From the NCBI GenBank assembly GCA_963707505.1, contig CAVPQB010000004.1:1374272-1438271 (forward strand): a stretch of DNA of 64,000 nt, read 5' to 3'. The notes beneath the pieces were generated by a model. That model saw nothing but the letters and a program-made list of their open reading frames with translations, made no database searches and was not told the origin of the DNA. Positions 1 to 27,271 of this stretch are shown piece by piece (position 1 is the first letter of the stretch; every line of letters starts with the position of its first letter). This DNA is from an uncultured Gemmatimonadales bacterium. Its GTDB lineage: Bacteria > Gemmatimonadota > Gemmatimonadetes > Gemmatimonadales > Gemmatimonadaceae. A program made the translations under genes and the position numbers.

Positions 1-518
1 TCGGTTCGCGTCACATCACCGTGTCGACGGTCGGGATTCTGCCCGGCATCGTCGCACTCGCGGACCGTCCTGAACAGTTCCGGCTCGCGATTTCAGTGCA
101 TGCACCGACCGATGAGCTGCGTCGCAGCCTCATGCCCATCAACACGAAGTATCCGCTCGCTGAAGTGATCGAAGCCGCGAAGCGCTTCGACCGGCGCGTC
201 ACCTTCGAGTACGTGATGCTCGGCGGTGTCAACGATCGCGATGAGGATGCGCGCGAGTTGATGAAGCTCGCGCAGGAGTGCAAGGCGTTCGTGAATCTCA
301 TTCCGCTGCATCCTGGCGGCGCGGGTGATTTCACACCAACCACCGCGGACTCCATACGGCGGTTCGCCGCCATGCTGCGGCGCGGTGGGTTGAGTGTCGC
401 GATCCGCAAGAGTCGCGGAAAGGACATCGCCGCCGCGTGTGGACAGCTACGGGTAGAACGGCATCGGAGGCGGCGTCCAGTCGGTGCCGAGCACGACGGT
501 GGCGTCGAGGTAGCGTGA
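1..518 (+). CDS. rlmN: 23S rRNA m2A2503/tRNA methyltransferase RlmN, 3' part (5' end outside window)
   Basis: Motifs STVG, LAISVHAP, TFEYVML.GVND, VNLIP and RGKDIAAACGQL are typical of the RlmN C-terminal half. Confidence 0.93.
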   Translation, partial: GSRHITVSTVGILPGIVALADRPEQFRLAISVHAPTDELRRSLMPINTKYPLAEVIEAAKRFDRRVTFEYVMLGGVNDRDEDARELMKLAQECKAFVNLIPLHPGGAGDFTPTTADSIRRFAAMLRRGGLSVAIRKSRGKDIAAACGQLRVERHRRRRPVGAEHDGGVEVA

Positions 519-879
519 CGTATCGGGGCGAGTGACGACCTTGCCCCCAATTGCCTTGCCGATCAGCGCGGCCCACTCGGGATGATTGGATCTATCCAGT
601 ACGAGTGTCGGCGCCTGCGTCGTACGAGAATTGCCCATCGCAACGACGTCGTAGCCGCGCGCGCGCAGCAGTAGCGTCGCGCGTCGCGCCGCACCGCGGG
701 TCGCGCTCGCGTTCAACACTTCTACCTTGATGCGCACGCCGAGCGGCGCGTGACCAATGGTAGTATCGATCTTTGCCGAAGATGCATCGGACGCACGTGC
801 CGCGACGTTGATCGCCCTTTTTGCAGCCCACGATCGCAAATACCGTAGCGATCGCCAGCACTACGGAACGCCGCAACAT
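447..879 (-). CDS. LytR C-terminal domain protein with lipoprotein-like signal (one frameshift)
   Basis: N-terminus MLRRSVVLAIATVFAIVGC in one frame; VEVLNAS..RGAARRAT..LRARGYDV and ATVVLGTDW (LytR_C) in another. Confidence 0.75.
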
Positions 880-1421
880 TACTGCAGGCTGTTCCAGAGC
901 GTGACTGTTTCCGGGAAGATGTGATTTCCCTCGCGCACCGTCCATTCGAGACGCATCCGCACCACCTGGCGAAACACCGTTTCGAACGACGTCGGGACCT
1001 GCAGCGAAAGAAAATACCTGTCCTGCTTCATGAACTTTCGGCCAGGCTCCAGAAAATCGGCCATGTACAGCGCGCGGCCGACGACGCCCCAGCGCGCACT
1101 CCCGACGGTATGATAGCGAATCGCGTCGAGCACATCGGTGCGCTTCTCGCCGTGCTTTTCCAGTGTAATCGCCGCAGCGGGCCCGTGCAGCAGTCCGAAC
1201 GGGCTTTCGTTGTCACCGGTTATCTCGCGCAACTCGGCTTCGGTCGCATCACGCAATGCATCGTGCAGTACGCCCGCATCGATGAACGCGCGCGCTTCCG
1301 CCGGCGGAAGCCGCATCGCCGCTGCCCACGCATTGAGTAACGCGGTGACGCGTTGAATGTGCTCGGCGCGCTTTTCGCCCACGCGCGCCCAATCGGGAAG
1401 GTCCAGCGTCGAGCTGTGCAT
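879..1421 (-). CDS. HD-domain phosphohydrolase, YqeK-like
   Basis: RAEHIQRV, GVLHDA, LLHGPAAA, AIRYHTVG, LYMADFLEPGR. Confidence 0.8.
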   Translation of the reverse strand: MHSSTLDLPDWARVGEKRAEHIQRVTALLNAWAAAMRLPPAEARAFIDAGVLHDALRDATEAELREITGDNESPFGLLHGPAAAITLEKHGEKRTDVLDAIRYHTVGSARWGVVGRALYMADFLEPGRKFMKQDRYFLSLQVPTSFETVFRQVVRMRLEWTVREGNHIFPETVTLWNSLQ

Positions 1422-1423
1422 TG

Positions 1424-2266
1424 TCAGAGTCTGATGTTGTCGATCAATCGAGTGCCACCGATCCGCGCCGCCACGAGTACCGAATCGCCGCTTGTCGCGA
1501 CCGACGGCGTTGCAAAATCAGCTTCATTCACCAGTGCGAAATAATCAACATCGAAGGCACCGTCCTCCGCCAGGACCGCGCTCCCTCTCGCTTCGATCGC
1601 CGACGGATCGGTATTACCGGCGTGGAACGTATCCTTTGCGGTGACCAGAGCTGCATGCAGCGCCGGTGCGTGGCGGCGTGCATCGGTGTCGAGGTAGCGG
1701 TTGCGACTGGAGAGCGCGAGTCCATCGCTTTCTCGCACCGTGTCGATTGCCGTAATGTGAACCGGAAAGTTCAGATCGGCGACCATTGTGCGGATCAGCG
1801 CCAGTTGCTGAAGGTCCTTCCGTCCAAACACCGCCACATCGGGCTGCACGATGTTGAACAGCTTCGCGACCACGGTGAGCACACCGGCGAAGTGACCGGG
1901 CCGAACGGCACCCTCGAAAAGCGCAGCGAACGATGGAGGCGTTACGGTCGTCCGCGACGTGCTTCCCGCGTACATCTCGTCCGCCGTGGGCATGAAGACA
2001 AGCGTCGCACCGTGCTCGGCGAGCTTCGCCGAATCGCTCTCGGGCGTGCGCGGATAACGCGCAAGGTCCTCGTTCGGTCCGAACTGCAACGGGTTTACGA
2101 AGATGCTCACCGCGACCACGTCCGCAGTTTTCGCCGCGGCGTCGACAAGCGCGAGATGTCCCTCGTGCAGTGCCCCCATCGTCGGCACGAGCGCCACGCT
2201 CGCGCCGTTCGCGCGGAGCTCGCGCAAACGCGCACGAATCCCGGTGATACTGCTCTCGATCAGCAT
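1424..2266 (-). CDS. panC: Pantoate--beta-alanine ligase
   Basis: VPTMGALHEGH, SIFVNPLQF, RPGHFAGV, GLALSSRN, TRLIDN. Confidence 0.97.
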   Translation of the reverse strand: MLIESSITGIRARLRELRANGASVALVPTMGALHEGHLALVDAAAKTADVVAVSIFVNPLQFGPNEDLARYPRTPESDSAKLAEHGATLVFMPTADEMYAGSTSRTTVTPPSFAALFEGAVRPGHFAGVLTVVAKLFNIVQPDVAVFGRKDLQQLALIRTMVADLNFPVHITAIDTVRESDGLALSSRNRYLDTDARRHAPALHAALVTAKDTFHAGNTDPSAIEARGSAVLAEDGAFDVDYFALVNEADFATPSVATSGDSVLVAARIGGTRLIDNIRL

Positions 2267-2275
2267 GTGGTGTGT

Positions 2276-3088
2276 CTAGAAGCTCTGATCGGCGGACGGA
2301 TAGCGATGCTCACGAACGTCGTCGCCGTATGCGCGCACGGCGTCGCGTACCGTATCGGCGAGATTCGCGTAACGCTTGAGGAAACGGGGTGAGAACTCCT
2401 CGTTCATGCCGAGCATGTCGGGAAGCACCAGCACCTGACCGTCGCACCCCGGGCCAGCACCGATCCCGATCGTCGGAGCGCCCACGCTCGCCGTGATGCG
2501 CGCCGCCAGCTTTGCCGGCATCAGCTCCAGAACTATCGCGAAGGCGCCCGCCTCGTCCAATCGCTTCGCTTCGGCCAGAATGCGCTCCTCTTCTTCCGCT
2601 TCCCGTCCCTGCACTCGCACGCCGATTGCATTCACCGATTGCGGCGTGAAGCCGATGTGTCCCATCACCGGGATTCCGATCTCGACAAGACGCGCGACTG
2701 TCGCGGCGATGTGCTCGTTACCGCCTTCCAGCTTCACAGCCTGCGCTCCAGTCTCGACGAGCAACCGTCCCGCATTCACGATCGCAGCGGCGGTATCGAT
2801 CTGATATGTCAGGAATGGCATGTCGACAGTAACGAGTGCGCGGGAGACCCCACGACATACCGCTGCACCGTGGTAGATCATTTGATCCAATGTCACCGGC
2901 AGAGTCGATTCGAATCCCGCCACCACGTTGCCGGCGGAATCACCGACGAGCACGATGTCCACTCCAGCCTGATCTACGAGCCGGCCGAAGAGCACGTCGT
3001 ACGCAGTGACGACGACGATCGGATCCTTGCCCTTGCGATCGCGAATGTCGCGAACCGTGACGGCGCGTGACGGTGGTGCGCTGCTCAA
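2276..3088 (-). CDS. panB: 3-methyl-2-oxobutanoate hydroxymethyltransferase
   Basis: TAYD, LVGDS, DMPF, VKLEGG, GHIGFTPQS, IGIGAG..CDGQVLV. Confidence 0.97.
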   Translation of the reverse strand: MSSAPPSRAVTVRDIRDRKGKDPIVVVTAYDVLFGRLVDQAGVDIVLVGDSAGNVVAGFESTLPVTLDQMIYHGAAVCRGVSRALVTVDMPFLTYQIDTAAAIVNAGRLLVETGAQAVKLEGGNEHIAATVARLVEIGIPVMGHIGFTPQSVNAIGVRVQGREAEEEERILAEAKRLDEAGAFAIVLELMPAKLAARITASVGAPTIGIGAGPGCDGQVLVLPDMLGMNEEFSPRFLKRYANLADTVRDAVRAYGDDVREHRYPSADQSF

Positions 3089-3534
3089 ATGGATACCTCT
3101 GCGAGCTCGGCAAGCTCTCGCTGCCAGAAGTCGCGGTTGTCGATTTCTATATGTGGCACCTGCAGCTCAGGCGAGCTCCAGGTGGTGTGCGCATACCTGA
3201 CAATGTCCAAATCTATTGTGCGCGGCCCCCAGCGGACGGTCGAACGCGCCCACCCTCACGCTCCGCCTCGTGCAGCGCCGCGAGCAATTCGGGCGGCGAC
3301 AGCGAGGTACGGATCGCGACCATCTGATTCAGATAGCGCCCCTGTGCAACGGGACCGATCGGCTCGGTTTCCTCGGCGCGGGTCACCGCCAGTATCGCGA
3401 ACTCCTCGAATTCTGCCAATGCGTGTCAGGGCGTCGGACAGATGTTTTCGCCGGTCGCCCAGGTTGGAGCCGAGCGCGACGAAGGCGACGTCATCCATGA
3501 CGGCATCCATGACGTCACGCGCGACGTCATCCAT
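3085..3534 (-). CDS. folK: 2-amino-4-hydroxy-6-hydroxymethyldihydropteridine diphosphokinase (frameshifted)
   Basis: AFVALGSNLGDR, YLNQMV, GPRTIDLDI and LQVPH spread over different frames. Confidence 0.9.
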
Positions 3535-3878
3535 CTCGCTCGCGGGTGATCGAGACTTCGGCGTATTCCACCGGGCCGGGCAACGGCACATGCGGCTTTC
3601 TGATCGACACCGTGGCTGACCGGACACCTGCGACGCGCAGTGCAGCAGCCGCGACGCGCTCGGCCGCCTCTTCGAGATAGGCGATGTGACGCACGTTCAT
3701 CACTTCTGCGACCGCGGTGTAAAGCGCGACGTAGTCGACGACGTGCGGCGGGCGCACATTCTCATCCACCTTTACCGAGAAGATCGAGCTCAACCGGTTG
3801 CGGAAGCTGCGCCTCATGCGGTAACACTCCGACGCGCGAGTGAAAGCGCATTCCTCTGAGCGAAACAGTGTCGGACAT
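3527..3878 (-). CDS. folB: Dihydroneopterin aldolase (one frameshift)
   Basis: MSDTVSLRGMRFHSRVGVLPHE..QPVELD, then VDYVALY..LEEAAE..VSIRKPHVPL; directly upstream of folK. Confidence 0.88.
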
Positions 3879-3880
3879 TC

Positions 3881-4686
3881 TCACCCTGCGTTGTCGATCC
3901 CAGCACGGAGGGACCGCGTGAGTGCGATCGCCGCATCAACGCTCGTTCCCGCCGCCCGGACGATCGCGCTTCCCACCACAACGCCGTCGGCGACAGCCGC
4001 AACAGCAGCGGCCTGACGTGCGTCCGTCACACCGAAGCCGACGCAGATAGGCAACGTGGTGACCGAACGCAGACGCTCGACCGTAGCGCCAGGTTCCGGG
4101 GCGATCCGCTGCTGCATACCTGTGACGCCGAGCCGGCTGATGAGATAGACGAATCCGCTGCCATTCTGTGCGATGAGCTTCATTCGATCAACCGGAGTGG
4201 TTGGTGCGACGAGTCGGATGAATGCAAGCGGGCTGGCCGTAAAGCGAGCCTTCGAGCGGCGGATCTGCGCCCACCGGAAGGTCGGTAATCAGCAAGCCGT
4301 CGCATCCCGCCTTCACTATCCGATCCAGTGCGCCCTCGCCGGCAGCGAGAAACGGATTGAGATACCCGAACAGAACCACCGGAACGCCGAGAGCCGCTTC
4401 AGCGACGATTTCGAGCACGCCGCTGAATGTCGTGCCCGCGTCGAGCGCGATCTGCGAGCTTGCCTGAATGACCGCGCCCGTCAGCGAGCGGGTCGGAGAA
4501 CGGCACGCCCACTTCAACTATGTCGGCGCCGGCGTCTTCCAGGCCGCGCAGCAAGGCTATCGAGCGAGCGCGGTCAGGATGTCCAGCTGTCGCGTAGCAC
4601 ACGAGCGCCTTTCTGCCCTGGTCGCGCAGAAGAGCGAACCGCTCGTCGATTCTGTTAGATGACGTAATCGCTAACCCTGATGCCAT
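3881..4686 (-). CDS. trpA: Tryptophan synthase alpha chain (frameshifted)
   Basis: ALVCYATAGHP, EVGVPFSDPLADG, YLNP, FVYLISRLGVTG, VGFGV, ADGVVVGSAIV. Confidence 0.93.
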
Positions 4687-5924
4687 ACCTGTCCGGATCT
4701 GCAGTCTTGATGATGGTGCGCGCAAACTGACCATCGGGTCCGGTCGCCGCAAGGTCTGTCTCGATTGGCGGCTGCAGAAGATTACCACGTCCGTCGCTCA
4801 CTACTACCACGCGCGGCCTCGACAACATCTCGGGATTCGGATTTGCGGCAAGCACGACCGCCAGCTCGAACGTGTCGAGCACGACGAGCGTTCCGGACGG
4901 GTAGATCCCGAGCAGCGTTATGAACGCCTTCACTACAACCGGATCGAGCCCGCGGCGTGGATTGTCACGCATCTCCTGCAGCACCGCTGACGGTGGATAC
5001 GGCTTGGTCTGATATGAGCGCCTGCTCGTTGCACGTCATACGCGTCCGCCACCGCTCGATCCTGCTCGTCATCGCAATGGATCGCGGACGAATCACGCGA
5101 GGATAACCGGACAGGTCGCGGCGCATGTGATGCTCGTGCGCGCTCACCATCGCACGATATGGAAGCTCCTGTTGCCCGCGCAGCTGAAACAGAGTGAGCA
5201 TCCCCAGCCATGGATGCGCCGTGATGCGCCGCCAGTCGTCCTCGTCCAGCGCGGTGGACTTCTGGAGCAGGTCGGTCGGAACGCGCGACTTGCCGATGTC
5301 GTGCATCAGCGCGGCGACACCGAGCTCGTAGAGCTGCAGCTTCGTCATCCCAATTCGCTTGCCAAGAGCCACAGCAAAGATGCAGACGTTGACGGAGTGC
5401 GTGTACGTGTACTCGTCGTACTCACGGAGAGTCGTAAGTCCGATCAGCGACGCCTCTTCCGTCAACACCTCGTCCACGATGGTCTGCACTGCTCGCTTGA
5501 TCTTCCGCGCGCTCGGCACGCGGCCCATGCGAACAGAGTTGATCACGTCCTTGGTGAGCGCGACCGACTGGGCATACGTACGCCGCGCCGCAGCCTTGGC
5601 GACCTCACGCTCCTCGATCTCTTCCTCCTCATCCGCGTGGGCGACTGCCTCGAACGCGTCCACTCCCGCGGCGCGCAAGCGGGTGACAAGCTCGTCCGCA
5701 TCGCCCTGGCCGGTGGCGCCGACTGTCGCCAGCAATGTGAGCAGCGAGAACCATTCGCGTGGCGTCGCTTCACGCACCACACGCAGCGACCCGACACCAG
5801 CTGATCGAAACAGGTCCAGCACGCGACCGAAGCTTCCGGCATAATTGCTGAGATCCAGGCGCAAGCGCGTGCCGTTTACGAAGATGAACTCGCCGTGCAC
5901 GCGCAGCTCGAGCTCGGAATCCAC
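4655..5924 (-). CDS. HD-GYP/HD-domain phosphodiesterase, 5'-truncated at the junction, frameshifted
   Basis: YTYTHSVNVC, ALMHDIGK, HEHH..DLSGYP, C-terminal GIYPSGTLVVL; no evident start or N-terminal region. Confidence 0.85.
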
Positions 5925-21934: not shown

Positions 21935-23026
21935 CCGTCTTTGGGTGAGGACAGCCACCGGCGCCAGGCTGGCGGGCGGGATCTAATCGAGAGCGCATCG
22001 CTCAGGTGCGTCGTCTAGGTGTAGTTCCTGACCACGTTGTTCCGGTCTGAGGGGTAAGCCATCCGGTGCTCCTTGGAGGCTGACAGGTGCTCAAGCCAGT
22101 CAGTCCCAAGGAGGACACCGGATGAAGATGCACGCTAACGCTCGGCTCAGTCTGAAGGGCCGCGAGCTGCTGGTCGATCGCGTCCAGGACGCGGGGTGGT
22201 CGCTGGTCGCGGCCGCCGAGGCGGCCGGGATCAGTGACCGCACCGCGCGCAAGTGGCTGGCCCGCCACCGGGCTGAAGGGCGCGAGGGGCTGCTGGATCG
22301 CTCCTCAGCCCCGACGGTGGTCGCCAATCGCACCGAGGAGCGCACGGTCGAGGTCATCGCTGCGCTGAGGCGGCTGCGCCTGACCGGCGCGGAGATCGCC
22401 GAGTGCCTGGATATGGCGCTCTCGACCGTGTCGGGGATCCTGACCCGGATCGGGCTGGGGCGGCTGGGGCGGCTGGGCTTGGAGCCCGCGCAGCGCTATG
22501 AGCGAGCTCGCCCGGTGAGCTGATCCACATCGACGTCAAGAAGCTCGGCCCGATCCACAACGGCGCTGGGCACCGCTTCACCGGCCATCCCGGCCAGCGC
22601 CGGGCCGCGGGCAGCCGCACCGACGCCGAAGGCGTCCGCCGCAACCGCAGCGGCTGGGAGTACGTGCACGTCGCCATCGACGACGCCACCCGCCTGGCCT
22701 ACGTCGCAGTTCTCGCCAACGAGAAAGCGCCCACCGCCATCGGATTCCTGCGCCGCGCCGTTCAGCACTTCGCCAGCTACGGCATCACCACCGAGCGACT
22801 GATCACCGATAACGGCAGCGCCTACCGCTCCACCGTCCACGCCATCGCCTGCCGCGCCCTCAAGATCCGCCACCTCCGCACCCGGCCCTACCGACCCCAG
22901 ACCAACGGCAAAGCCGAACGATTCATCCGCACCCTGCTCGGCGGCTGGGCCTACGGCGCGATCTACCGCTCAAGCGCCGAGCGCAACGCCGCCCTCGCCG
23001 GCTGGCTTGACTTCTACGGATGAAAG

Positions 23027-24381
23027 TCAAGTGGCAGGAGCGGTCTGTTGGTGGGATCCTTTCGGGTGGTGCGGGTGACTGACGAAGCGAAGTGCAGGTA
23101 TCAGGGGCTTGTGGCCTGCCGCGCGGCTTTGCCCTTCGAGGGCCTTTCTAATGCGCGCCCCGGTGTCGCGCCCGCACCACCGTTCGGTCGCTGTCCAGTC
23201 GGCGACGAGCCGGCGATAGGCCGTCTCGGCCTGGCCGGCGAGCTCTTTCTCGAGGCGACGCTGATCGACGCTGGCAAATGTGCGTCCCGCGCTCGCGAGG
23301 CGTTTTCCTTGTTGGCGTGGCGCGCCGAGCATGCAGCTCATAGCGCCGCAGCTTCTCGCGGTGCAGCGAGGGTCGGCCAAACGCGTATCCCTCGCCGCGG
23401 CGCAGCATGTGAAACGCGATGACCACGAGCTTGCGGGCGACCGCGACCGTGGCGATGTTCGCGCCGCGGCGGGCGGCGACCCGCTGGTGGAACGCGCGCA
23501 GCGGGCCGGTGGTTCTCGCGGCGTGCCACGCCGCTTCGACCAGCAGCCCCCGAACCGGCCCGGGGCCTTGTTTGCTGATCCGGCCGTGCTTGGCGGGCTC
23601 GTTACCGGATTGACTGCACCCGCGGGCTCAGCCCGAGATAGCCGACCAGGTGATCGGCGGTCGGGAACCGGCGCACATCACCGATCGCGGCCAGCATCGC
23701 GGTCGCGGTCACGCCGCTGACTCCCGGGAGGGTCATCAGCCGGCGGATGTCCTCGCTGGCGAGCACCTGCTTGGCGATCTCGATGTCAACCAGCTCGATC
23801 TCTGCGGCTAGGAAATCGATCTGGCGCAGGCACGCATCGACTGTCTGCTGCTCATCGGTCGGCAGCAGCCTGCACTGGTCAGAGAGCCAGATACGTCCCT
23901 TGACCCCGAACACGTCTGTCATCGGTGGCCGGCTCTTGAGCTGGCGTTGGAGAACGGCGTGCACCTGGTTCTTCTCACGCACCCGCTGACGCACGAGGTG
24001 CATTCGCCGGGAGATCAGGCGCCGACGGACCCGCGTGGGCTCATCAGGCGTCCACACCTCCGCCAGGAAGCCTGCCGCCAGCAGACGAGCCAACAGCGCC
24101 GCGTCGATCTTGTCGGTCTTGGCTCGCAGACCGGTGATCCTCTTCACCGACTTCGGGTCGGCCAGCACCACCTGCGCGACGTGCGGCTCGACGATCCGGG
24201 CGATCGCCAAGGCGTTCGCCGTGGCCTCCATCGCGACCACATCGTCCGGCGCCAGGCTGCACGCGAACACCTCCAGCTCTGACGGGGTGCTCGCCACCTG
24301 ACCGGCGAAGCGCAACCTGCCGTCCTCGACGACCGCGACCTCGCAGAAGTCACGATGGACATCTACTCCGATGAACCTCAC
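23027..24381 (-). CDS. IS110-family recombinase/transposase (frameshift near 23620)
   Basis: GVDVHRD, MEAT, KTDKIDA, LMTLPGV, YLGLSP, VATARKLVV. Confidence 0.92.
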
Positions 24382-24389
24382 CACCACCT

Positions 24390-24620
24390 CCTTCAGCTCG
24401 AAGAAGCAAGGTGGAGACGCGGCGGGCAAAACGACAACTACGGATCCGTGCTCGAAGCACACCCGGGCAAGTCGCGGGGGCGGCCAACTACAAATTGCGG
24501 GCTCTCAGCCCATAGAACTAACGGCCTGCCCAGCCAACGTTCTCCCGGAACCCCCGTCCCGGAACGCCGCCAACCTACGACGGGCCCCGGACACAACGGG
24601 CTCCAGGACGCAGTTTCATG
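24390..24620 (-). ncRNA. Putative bridge RNA of IS110 element 1
   Basis: Non-coding region upstream of the transposase with four short matches to target and donor halves (see findings); boundaries approximate. Confidence 0.6.
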
Positions 24621-24729
24621 CCCCTACAATCGCCGCCGACCACACGGCGCCCTCAGCCACAAGCCACCCATCGACCGCCTCAACGAACGGAACAACCTCC
24701 TCGGGTCCTACAGCTGATATGGAGAGTCG

Positions 24730-25000
24730 TTTGTCAACCCGGGCGCGGTGATTTGTCGCTGGTGGCGCCGTGGGGGTGTGGGTGTGGTCGGCTGGGTGGG
24801 TGGCGGTCCGGCTTGCTGTGCGCGACGCGCGGTCAGGCTGATATTCGCGGGTTGGGACCGCAGGACCATGTTCGTCGTGGGGAGCCGCTGTCTAGGATCG
24901 GGCGTGGCCGGCCGGTGAGGGCGGGTTGCTCATAGCTGTCTCGCGGGTTCCCCGCGCGTGCCGGGCCGCCACCGACCCAGCCGACGGGATGAGGGACTCG
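24730..25000 (-). ncRNA. Putative seek/bridge RNA of IS110 element 2 (downstream non-coding region)
   Basis: Contains tagctgt and ctagg (target halves) and ctgatat (donor junction); boundaries approximate. Confidence 0.62.
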
Positions 25001-25003
25001 GGG

Positions 25004-26086
25004 TTACTCGATTTGGCTGATCGCCCAGCAGAACCCGGCGAGCTCGCGGGCGGCGGCGACGGCGATGATCGTGCGGCGCTTGGCGCGGGCCTCCAGACGG
25101 GTCCAGGTGCGATGCAGTCGCCGTTGGGCTGACCAGGCGATCGCGATCGCCTCGGGTGGCTGGCCGTCCTGGCGCTCGGTGAGTGCCTTGCCGATCGCGG
25201 GGCGCTTGCGGTAGTGCCAGGCGGCTTCGACCAGCAGCCGCCGGGCGTGCCCAGAACCGGTCTTGGTGATCGACCCCAGCCGTCGCTGCTGCCCGGTGGT
25301 GTTCTCGCACGGGACTAGGCCGACGTAGTTCATCAGCTGCTCGGCCTTCGCGAACCGTTCGAAGTCGCCGATCTCTGAGCACAGCCCGACCGCGGTGAGC
25401 GTGTCGACCCCGCGCAGGCATCGCAGCCGCCCGACCTGCGTGGCCCACGGCGAGCTCGGGAGCAGCGCGAGGATCTCGCGCTCTAACGCGTCGCGGCGGT
25501 GACAGAGCGCGTCGATCGCTCCCTGCACGTCGAGCAGCGTCGATTGCGCGGCCGGCCACTGCAGCGTGATCGTCGCCAGCCAGGCTCGGTGGCGGTCTGT
25601 CCACGCCTTCCCGTCGTCAAACCGGATCCCGTGACGCAACAGCAGCTTGGAGAGCCGATGCCGGGAGCGCATCAGATCCACCCGAACCTGCTCGCGGGCG
25701 CGGACCAGGTCGCGCAGCGCCTCCTCCTCGGGCCCGGGCACCCTGACCGGGTGAAGCTTGCCGGCCAACAACAACCGGACCAGATGCTCGGCGTCACGCC
25801 GATCGGTCTTGACCCGATCCCCCGACGCCCGCGGGATCTTGCTCGGCGCCGCGACCACGCACTCCACGCCGCGCCGCGCGAGCTCCCGCGCGAGCCCGTA
25901 CCCGGTCGGGCCGGCCTCATACGCGACCCGCACCGGCCGCGGCAATCCCGCGCAGAACCCGGCCGCCCCACCAGCATCACCGCTCATCGCAAACCGCGAC
26001 AGCTCCCCGGTCTCCGCGTCCAGCACCGCCGCGACGATCTTCGCCGCGTGCACGTCCAAGCCGACGACGGTCCTAGCCTTCGCCAT
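25004..26086 (-). CDS. IS110-family recombinase/transposase, uninterrupted 360 aa
   Basis: GLDVH, YEAGPTG, KTDRRDA, LRGVDTLTA, ITKTG..HARRLLVEAAW, AAARELAGF. Confidence 0.95.
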   Translation of the reverse strand: MAKARTVVGLDVHAAKIVAAVLDAETGELSRFAMSGDAGGAAGFCAGLPRPVRVAYEAGPTGYGLARELARRGVECVVAAPSKIPRASGDRVKTDRRDAEHLVRLLLAGKLHPVRVPGPEEEALRDLVRAREQVRVDLMRSRHRLSKLLLRHGIRFDDGKAWTDRHRAWLATITLQWPAAQSTLLDVQGAIDALCHRRDALEREILALLPSSPWATQVGRLRCLRGVDTLTAVGLCSEIGDFERFAKAEQLMNYVGLVPCENTTGQQRRLGSITKTGSGHARRLLVEAAWHYRKRPAIGKALTERQDGQPPEAIAIAWSAQRRLHRTWTRLEARAKRRTIIAVAAARELAGFCWAISQIE

Positions 26087-26309
26087 GGCTGGTTCCTCCT
26101 ATGCGATTGTGGGCCGCCGCGCGGGTACCAGCCGCGCGGCATAACTTCACCCCCACCGACGACGTGGGGGGAACCGGCCTCTTCTATCTCTCAGGCCGGA
26201 CGGACCAACAATCCATATTGTCTAGGCGAGCCGGGGCAGCAGGTCGGCATGTCTCTGCTCCCTCCCGTTCGTCGACTCGCCGTCGGGCAGGTTGCGCGGA
26301 CCCCAGTTG

Positions 26310-26717
26310 CTACGCGTTTACGGGTTCGGGCGCATCGACCAAGTCCGCATCTGGGGCGAGAACGAAGATCTCGACCAGCCGGTCCGGGTCAAACAGGATT
26401 TGGCTGTGGTAGCTGACGATCTTGCGCTCGAGGACGTCCTCGACGCGGCGGATGAGTTCGGGGGCGATCACGGCTTGGAAGCGGAGACGGTATGCGCGTA
26501 CGGCTTCGTGCTCTCCTCCGCGGACCATCGTTTCCTCATCGCGGGTCATGCCGCCGCTCATCGTGCAGAACACGTATTCGTCGCAGAAGTAGGTCTTGGC
26601 GTGGGTCGGGCCGCGTCCGTAGAGGTCCTTCATCGTGCGCACGACGGCTTGTGAGACACGCGCTTGCAGGGACTGCGCCTCTGAGGGGCTTCCCTCGGTG
26701 ACTTCGTCATCGGCCAT
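26310..26717 (-). CDS. DUF2294 (MpsC-like) domain protein
   Basis: SQAVVRTMKDLYGRGPTHAKTY, MTRDEETM, VRAYRLRFQ, VEIFVL. Confidence 0.8.
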   Translation of the reverse strand: MADDEVTEGSPSEAQSLQARVSQAVVRTMKDLYGRGPTHAKTYFCDEYVFCTMSGGMTRDEETMVRGGEHEAVRAYRLRFQAVIAPELIRRVEDVLERKIVSYHSQILFDPDRLVEIFVLAPDADLVDAPEPVNA

Positions 26718-26950
26718 GTGCGCGCAGACTAGCTCAGGCAGCGAGCTCAGCAGAGATGGGCCGAGTCCAAAGGATTCAGGGGCGAACGCACGTTTGGGCG
26801 GACCTAGCGCGGGGTAGACTCAGCTATGAGCGAGCCGACGTCAGCTTGCGCCGCTCCTGCAGTATCAGACGGGAACGATCCCACCGGGCGAAACGCCGTT
26901 GGAGCGATCGGTCCAGTCGCCAGCCTCAATTCTCACTTTAGGAGTGTCGC

Positions 26951-27271
26951 ATGAGCATTACCACCCCCGCTGAGGGACGCCGTTTCGACCGTGCCGACCG
27001 GGACCGTTCGGCCGCTGAACATTCAACTCGGCGTCTGTCGACCGAGACAAAGGCCGCGTTCAAGACGACCGAGTTCATCGCGTATCTCGTCGTACTCGCC
27101 GGAATCCTGATCGCCGGAGCGGTGGCGAAGGCCAGCCACTATGCCGGTGCCCACGATCCCTTCCGAGCCGACCGTGTGTGGCTGTACGCCACGATTCTGA
27201 CGGTCGGGTACATGATCAGCCGCGGGCTCGCGAAGGCCGGCACCCGCGAGCGCTACGACGAGCAGTCGTAA
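26951..27271 (+). CDS. Small two-TM hypothetical membrane protein
   Basis: AGGAG RBS upstream; TETKAAFKTTEF and GYMISRGLAK. Confidence 0.75.
   Translation: MSITTPAEGRRFDRADRDRSAAEHSTRRLSTETKAAFKTTEFIAYLVVLAGILIAGAVAKASHYAGAHDPFRADRVWLYATILTVGYMISRGLAKAGTRERYDEQS

Follow-up and report, generated by a model that had tools for sequence, protein, structure and literature searches.

The IS1111-type element described here is most probably an insertion sequence that settles beside another insertion sequence: an RNA from its downstream non-coding region is predicted to guide its recombinase to a site of 8-9 bp, which covers the terminal ACA of an IS481-family element together with the adjoining NCTAGN duplication, and its lineage likely makes use of these junctions as landing sites that are safe and renew themselves. 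The element lies in a window of 64,000 nucleotides (the whole stretch of DNA that was analysed) from an uncultured Gemmatimonadales bacterium. The preference for IS481 junctions is a family-level trait, neither exclusive nor destructive; that the window copy itself is programmed against IS481 would follow from the behaviour of its family. The features at the insertion site are the following:

22020..24712, plus strand: IS481-family element running from TGT to ACA, frameshifted near 22500, with a second IS110 inside
24710..24715, plus strand: target half on the IS481 side, made up of the terminal ACA, a G and the CT core; an in-frame TGA stop arises where it meets the first G of the element
24716..26223, minus strand: IS1111-type element, 1508 bp long if the CT/AG core is counted once, with ends conserved in homologues
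24719..24730, no strand: right subterminal inverted repeat, set 3 bp in from the end, 8/12 alike with the left repeat
24732..24737, minus strand: TTGACA -35 box, whose predicted partner is a 4-of-6 -10 box, GACAAT, at 17 nt spacing in the circle junction only
25004..26086, minus strand: IS110-family recombinase of 360 aa, with D11, E57, D95 and D98 present and T264 at the place of IS621 S241
26205..26216, no strand: left subterminal inverted repeat, set 7 bp in from the end
26224..26226, plus strand: AGG, the rest of the IS481 target duplication, by sequence reading

Copies of the CT core are read directly at 24714-24715 and 26222-26223, and excising 24716-26223 leaves cctACAGCTAGG, which can also be written ACAGCTAGG. 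The subterminal repeat is imperfect (8/12), and its 7/3 spacing is that of the IS1111 group, whose members, according to the accessible part of PMC11187229, have subterminal inverted repeats of 11-13 bp placed 7 and 3 bp inside the ends. Non-coding DNA is likewise distributed as in this group, with about 290 nt downstream of the recombinase gene versus 137 nt upstream. The reading frame (26086-25004, minus strand) is free of stops over its 360 codons; in profile searches the protein passes NF033542 with 228 bits against a cut-off of 140, and PF01548 and PF02371 (the DEDD RuvC-like and Tnp20 domains) score above cut-off, which places it in the IS110/IS1111 family. A first-pass annotation, made from the letters alone, had already named an IS1111-type element with an uninterrupted 360-aa recombinase, and this description holds.

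The neighbouring element belongs to the IS481 family by PF13011 and rve; NF033577 is its top match, in two pieces that each stay below the cut-off. The earlier annotation took the restored sequence as the IS481 right end. The restored sequence is correct, but its CTAG part is target duplication: the IS481 end proper reads ...CCTACA and ends at 24712, with the duplicated GCTAGG beyond it. This means that the insertion lies in the duplication and not in the IS481 repeat. The core is found inside NCTAGN, 1 bp outside the IS481 terminus, and not within an inverted repeat as with IS4321-type insertions. The two duplication copies, TCTAGG on the left (22014-22019) and GCTAGG on the right (24713-24715 plus 26224-26226), are alike at 5/6 positions and differ in the first base. 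Three of the four whole unoccupied IS481 copies that were fetched have a perfect 6-bp duplication; the fourth, in locus L179, likewise differs at one end base. As far as the accessible part of its description goes, the IS481-family element ISRe46/TnRErm46 has an NCTAGN direct repeat, a repeat starting with TGT, and a transposase stop codon formed by the TAG of the duplication (PMC6794481). Since IS481 duplicates NCTAGN, the guide covers the ACA of the terminus, then a variable base, then CTAG. After the insertion the IS481 frame still ends in ...GSYS-stop, with the TAG stop replaced by a TGA that the element's end supplies.

IS481 arrived before the IS1111-type element, since the right-end junction is without CTAG, none of 92 left flanks has an IS481-type end, with orientation fixed, and excision restores perfect 6-bp duplications in L163, L167, L169 and L219. 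We find it hardly credible that IS481 came second, beside a resident IS1111, or that both moved as one unit. CTAG, the IS481 target, is indeed kept at the left junction of the IS1111-type element, but it is always the right end that IS481 adjoins, and the IS481 partners range from ~38 to 92% identity to that of the window.

The downstream region carries the predicted guide RNA, with these parts:

24787..24985, minus strand: predicted bridge/seek RNA, a long closing stem around target-binding and donor-binding hairpins, with two-sided change in 23/41 pairs
24933..24939, minus strand: target guide 1, ACAGCUA, the complement of the transposase-sense strand across the core and the IS481-side flank; Z 8.1-12.1 at variable positions
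24892..24896, minus strand: target guide 2, CCUAG, with the same sequence as the transposase-sense strand across the core and the other flank; Z 6.1-10.7
24864..24869, minus strand: donor guide towards the left end, AUGGUC, here 5/6 complementary to the core and left end
24838..24844, minus strand: donor guide AUAUCAG, identical to the right end and core; position 24840 matches in 82/82, Z 8.2

Homologous loci came from scans of genomes (15 of 64 parts; best 80 of 496 hits) and of metagenomes (7 of 64 parts; best 80 of 530 hits). A right end was recognisable in 112 of 161 loci, window included; once loci with a single end or short flanks, duplicates and two loci with a wrongly called left end had been set aside, 82 unique sites remained for covariation. 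Across these, RNA positions 24939 to 24936 are complementary to right-flank bases 4 to 1 in 55, 71, 71 and 69 cases (24-30 expected), and positions 24896 to 24894 are identical to left-flank bases 3 to 1 in 48, 78 and 80 (24, 55 and 53 expected). The best Z between guide and flank reaches 12.1, against a maximum of 4.95 over 300 shuffles, which ignore kinship; guides differ even between elements that are 93% identical. On the donor side, position 24840 agrees with the last right-end base at all 82 sites, including a C/G switch, and position 24868 follows left-end base 4 more weakly than the other guides do (57/82, Z 6.5). Position 24837 tracks flank base 1 (61/82, Z 9.2), which would fit a pairing between the two loops. 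Among the top 30 covarying pairs there was no signal for pairing past flank base 4. Thus tagctgt (24933-24939), ctagg (24892-24896) and ctgatat (24838-24844), proposed as guides from one sequence, are guide positions that covary across the family.

The fold of the downstream non-coding region beats all 200 shuffles (z -4.25). A two-hairpin structure, set by hand from the window fold, counted afterwards and therefore leaning towards the window sequence, has 86.5% of its cells paired in 30 sequences, versus 37-42% when slid, and all four guides sit in its internal loops. The matches lie in loops of a covarying structure and not in paired stems, and internal-loop guides that covary with target and donor are the mark of a bridge or seek RNA. 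Single-sequence unpaired probabilities are mostly above 0.5 for three guides and low over half of the fourth; plain RNAalifold overlooked the majority of the stems and had guide 1 pair to the flank. The order within the RNA is that of the IS1111 group, with the complement of the top strand (24939-24933) ahead of the bottom-strand match (24896-24892). An Rfam scan of 22000-27000 gave two chance-level hits only. A 23-nt inverted match (83%) between the target-loop region (24916-24938) and an intergenic stretch 600 nt off (26821-26843) is probably due to chance.

How strongly the family prefers IS481 ends can be judged from several counts. ACAGCTA is the commonest of 50 guides (16/108), and ACA-N-CTA guides (21/108) are scattered on the tree, with 15 changes versus 19.6 when shuffled. 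TGT follows CTAGN at 26 of 2326 sites in the window's genome and 17 of 1097 in the loci (1.1-1.5%), and ACA among the guides is about 20-fold above its background. With the window left out, 6/20 elements with ACA-N-CTA guides adjoin an IS481-type end versus 1/85 with other guides (p 1.5e-4), an enrichment that the first-pass annotation had proposed to look for; the other 14 same-guide homologues sit away from IS481 ends. For four of the six the flanks are shorter than 100 nt and the call rests on the end motif, which was drawn from the hits themselves, was checked by tblastn on the four whole unoccupied copies and has a background of 103/180,765 (0.057%). L051 resembles an IS481 end but fails the motif, in an APH-like frame, and was counted as non-IS481.

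Nine genomes chosen for carrying the guide were counted with all their copies and free sites, leaving out the window's genome and G410, which has a TCAGCTA guide. Exact CTAGCTGT sites were occupied in eight cases and free in five at IS481-type ends, versus eight and 92 elsewhere (p 2e-5), giving 18-fold occupancy odds for IS481 ends over sequence-identical sites; these sites are not independent of one another within a genome, repeats are collapsed in MAGs, and the copy counted in L166 is without a left junction. IS481 ends with another base at N were never occupied (0/16). Four of the nine genomes have none of two copies at IS481 ends, among them that of the closest same-guide relative (94% aa; 0/2). 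Within the clade of 79-94% identity the window copy alone is at an IS481 end, and the majority of close relatives differ from it in guide and target. A search with the guide pattern through 401 genomes of the order matched only the window's genome.

Among 691 plasmid hits, 20 of the top 25 served as an independent set, with 47-51% identity. ACA-N-CTA guides are carried by 12/20; seven of these lie at IS481-type ends, six with a transposase match, and five at other sites. N agrees with the guide in 6/7, with G, C and A guides, while the guide is mismatched at N in three IS481-end insertions (L144, L214 and the second copy in L220). On plasmids of Mycolicibacterium poriferae and Rhodococcus pyridinivorans, inverted copies of 99% identity occupy both ends of one IS481, and the M. 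poriferae IS481 gene is annotated as whole. These pairs (L219:601-4721 and L220, about 300-5400) bracket IS481 like a composite unit, with one copy damaged in each. The occupied IS481 end in L216 differs at 1/20 positions from the repeat of ISRe46 as printed in the accessible part of PMC6794481.

Two general rules were considered and gained no support. One is the targeting of stop codons as such (14/36 CTAG sites at likely stops versus backgrounds of 66/266 and 326/1162; p 0.11 and 0.19), the other the lethality of in-gene insertions as the cause of the IS481 excess, coding-like sites making up 6/37 of those occupied versus 45/268 and 184/1162 in the background (~16%).

Some further associations were noted. 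IS481 left ends start with TGA in L037, L169, G410 and L123, and the second commonest guide, TCAGCTA (8/108), fits them; in G410, 2/4 copies lie at a TGA-type IS481 end with the same flanks, likely from one event. A relative with guide CGCCCTA adjoins an annotated IS5-family element at a CTAG site (L212:2962). Other guides of the family may therefore read into other IS ends. Two clades, seen in right flanks, each retain a single guide and a single conserved target sequence across genomes, one made up of L046-L049, L127, L129, L131 and L137 and the other of L052, L059, L062, L065, L068, L071, L158 and L159; for these conserved non-IS481 targets, the eight loci searched gave no Rfam match.

Another reading is an element that is a generalist for a short motif: its guide would not be selected on IS481, the junctions would supply a rare CTAG 8-mer where insertions survive, and the excess would reflect survivorship or a shared island. 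We hold this to be unlikely, though it is the most serious competitor. Same-guide insertions are mostly elsewhere and CTAG-anchored guides dominate the whole family, but the 20-fold surplus of ACA among guides is not accounted for, nor is the variable guide letter that follows N while ACA stays constant. Survivorship that left only a quarter of the other sites usable would raise p to 0.04; against this, only 16% of CTAG sites lie in coding-like DNA, and occupied sites show no depletion of these. An island is compatible with the window's GC of 63-69% in a genome of 60-63%, yet two plasmids were hit at both ends of one IS481.

Far less probable is a dedicated parasite whose insertion would split the IS481 end and so inactivate IS481, in the manner reported for IS4321/IS5075 in the Tn21 repeats. 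Insertion is recurrent and oriented at both left and right IS481 ends, but the site is the 6-bp duplication outside the terminal TGT/ACA, the IS481 stop codon is preserved, the M. poriferae gene is whole with both ends occupied, and the targeting is not exclusive. The earlier proposal of an RNA-guided parasite of IS481 ends hence stands in its guides and in the recurrent association, whereas a dedicated parasite does not fit with 14/20 insertions elsewhere and an intact terminus and frame.

In the preferred reading, a junction-directed element that leaves IS481 whole, circle formation would join the ends and thereby complete a TTGACA-17-GACAAT promoter. Two hairpins, each with an internal loop, would form in the RNA, the predicted target guides pairing with both strands round the CT core and the donor guides with the element's own ends, as the covariation suggests. 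Recombination at the core would proceed through the DEDD residues and Thr264 instead of serine, and the right end would land 1 bp outside IS481, as observed, with the repeat intact and TAG turned into TGA. Because the guide is short, other matching sites would also be used, and such insertions are indeed seen. The TTGAC of the -35 box is invariant in 30/30 aligned homologues. A complete promoter was looked for in the linear form and none was found; the combination arises only across the predicted junction, where the box would be part of a circle-junction promoter. The end-to-end joint of a circle was absent among the joints listed for four contig-only runs, whose contigs are of mixed relatives, and in RNA runs at most 12% of words were present, as contigs of mixed relatives only.

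D11, E57, D95 and D98 are near-invariant among 108 proteins of the family. T264 aligns without gaps to the serine of IS621 and ISCro4 (IS621 S241), and the catalytic loop of the window recombinase reads TTG; the serine that IS621-type recombinases use for a 5'-phosphoserine is absent. Judged by this alignment, T264 may act as nucleophile in its place. This threonine, the second donor guide and the second IS110 inside the same IS481 go beyond the first-pass annotation. It seems improbable that the window recombinase is inactive without the serine, its copy having been placed in trans by a Ser-type relative. Such a view is in line with the loss of IS621 activity upon S241 mutation (PMC11208158, accessible part), with the TTG loop and with the single copy of the element in the window's genome. 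Threonine before glycine is, however, common to 41/108 proteins, 30 of them TTG, and the guides of the TTG clade are much reprogrammed; moreover, one relative with the TTG loop is present in two copies of 99.7% identity, at different sites of a genome in which the end pattern picked up no further member of the family.

The IS481 gene houses one more element:

23018..24627, minus strand: second IS110-family element, frameshifted, with an upstream non-coding region and a CTAC core, inside the IS481 transposase gene; guides identified by eye

It sits at the gene's 'DFYN' codons, has short subterminal repeats and shows four apparent guide matches upstream, found by eye (24488-93, 24469-73, 24438-45 and 24424-28). 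No homologues were found in 200 family genomes at E 1e-70 or in viral contigs. The frameshifts in IS481 and in this IS110 may be assembly errors. The three IS elements of the window are the only IS110 and IS481 matches in its genome, and with a GC of 63-69% versus 60-63% for the genome contigs, the window is likely an acquired island. Elsewhere in the family, another IS110-type element lies exactly at the right end of IS1111-type homologues at six loci (L006:4387, L013:5685 and 5863, L025:4397, L029:4396, L034:4412, L130:1333). The right-end sequence recurs in the upstream region of this element, and in the three full copies inspected the base that follows changes in step with it, which suggests that this IS110 is programmed against an IS1111. 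In L025 and L034 the guide-matching flank of the IS1111-type element resumes beyond this insertion, and L034 also has a short gene-less version of it.

The mechanism is that of the known IS1111 seekRNA and IS621 bridge RNA, and the targeting of one IS by another is known as well. IS4321/IS5075, of the IS1111 group, reportedly target the Tn21 inverted repeats, and IS1383, of the same group, is said to target IS1384 repeats. The element described here is similarly aimed at the ends of another mobile element; unlike those, which by their titles go into the inverted repeats themselves, it recombines in the target duplication and reads 3 bp of the repeat.

Comparisons with published systems draw on the accessible parts of the cited papers. 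With ISEc11, ISPa11, ISKpn4 and ISPst6 (Siddiquee et al. 2024, PMC11187229) our element shares the downstream non-coding region, the subterminal repeats 7/3 bp inside the ends, the top-strand complement ahead of the bottom-strand match and natural reprogramming; it differs in its IS481-junction target, the Actinomycetota host range, a donor loop also backed by covariation and the threonine in the catalytic loop. Like IS621 (Durrant et al. 2024, PMC11208160; Hiraizumi et al. 2024, PMC11208158), it has target and donor internal loops, a CT core, the DEDD tetrad and a junction promoter, here predicted, whereas its RNA is downstream, its target is read in the opposite sense, its guides are shorter and Thr264 replaces Ser241; the two recombinases show weak sequence likeness (E 5e-4). 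ISEc21, whose target lies in IS3 transposase genes at the codons round the second D (PMC11187229), is a case of RNA-guided IS-on-IS targeting and the closest parallel to the second IS110 within the IS481 gene; unlike the window element, it is of the IS110 group and breaks the transposase gene of its host element. ISRe46/TnRErm46 represents the target class, and an IS110 partner is absent from the accessible part of its description (PMC6794481). No report of an IS1111-IS481 pairing was found in the openly accessible literature that was searched. Neither this pairing nor a threonine nucleophile is reported in the covered parts of PMC11208160, PMC11187229, PMC11208158, PMC6794481 and the preprints 2026.08.31.748434, 2026.08.14.744561 and 2026.03.19.712850, or in the supplements of PMC11208160 and PMC11187229, as far as these were searched.

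A bolder and rather doubtful extension is that an actinobacterial IS1111 lineage tracks IS481 transposition via a cue beyond the 8-9 bp pairing, such as end structure or bound transposase, cuts by phosphothreonine, places inverted copies on either side of IS481 and in turn serves as the programmed target for a third IS110, forming a three-tier RNA-guided chain. The 18-fold occupancy odds make testable what sets the specificity of bridge recombinases beyond base pairing; for ISPpu10, a target stem-loop is such a cue, according to the accessible part of 10.64898/2026.03.19.712850. Efforts to understand and engineer such enzymes in high-GC bacteria can draw on fifty natural guides on one conserved scaffold and on what may be a threonine nucleophile. 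The finding extends the natural targets of RNA-guided recombinases by a widespread class, namely a junction made by another transposon and used unbroken. Since IS481-family elements carry cargo in Rhodococcus (PMC6794481, accessible part), IS1111 pairs at IS481 ends may shape cargo units.
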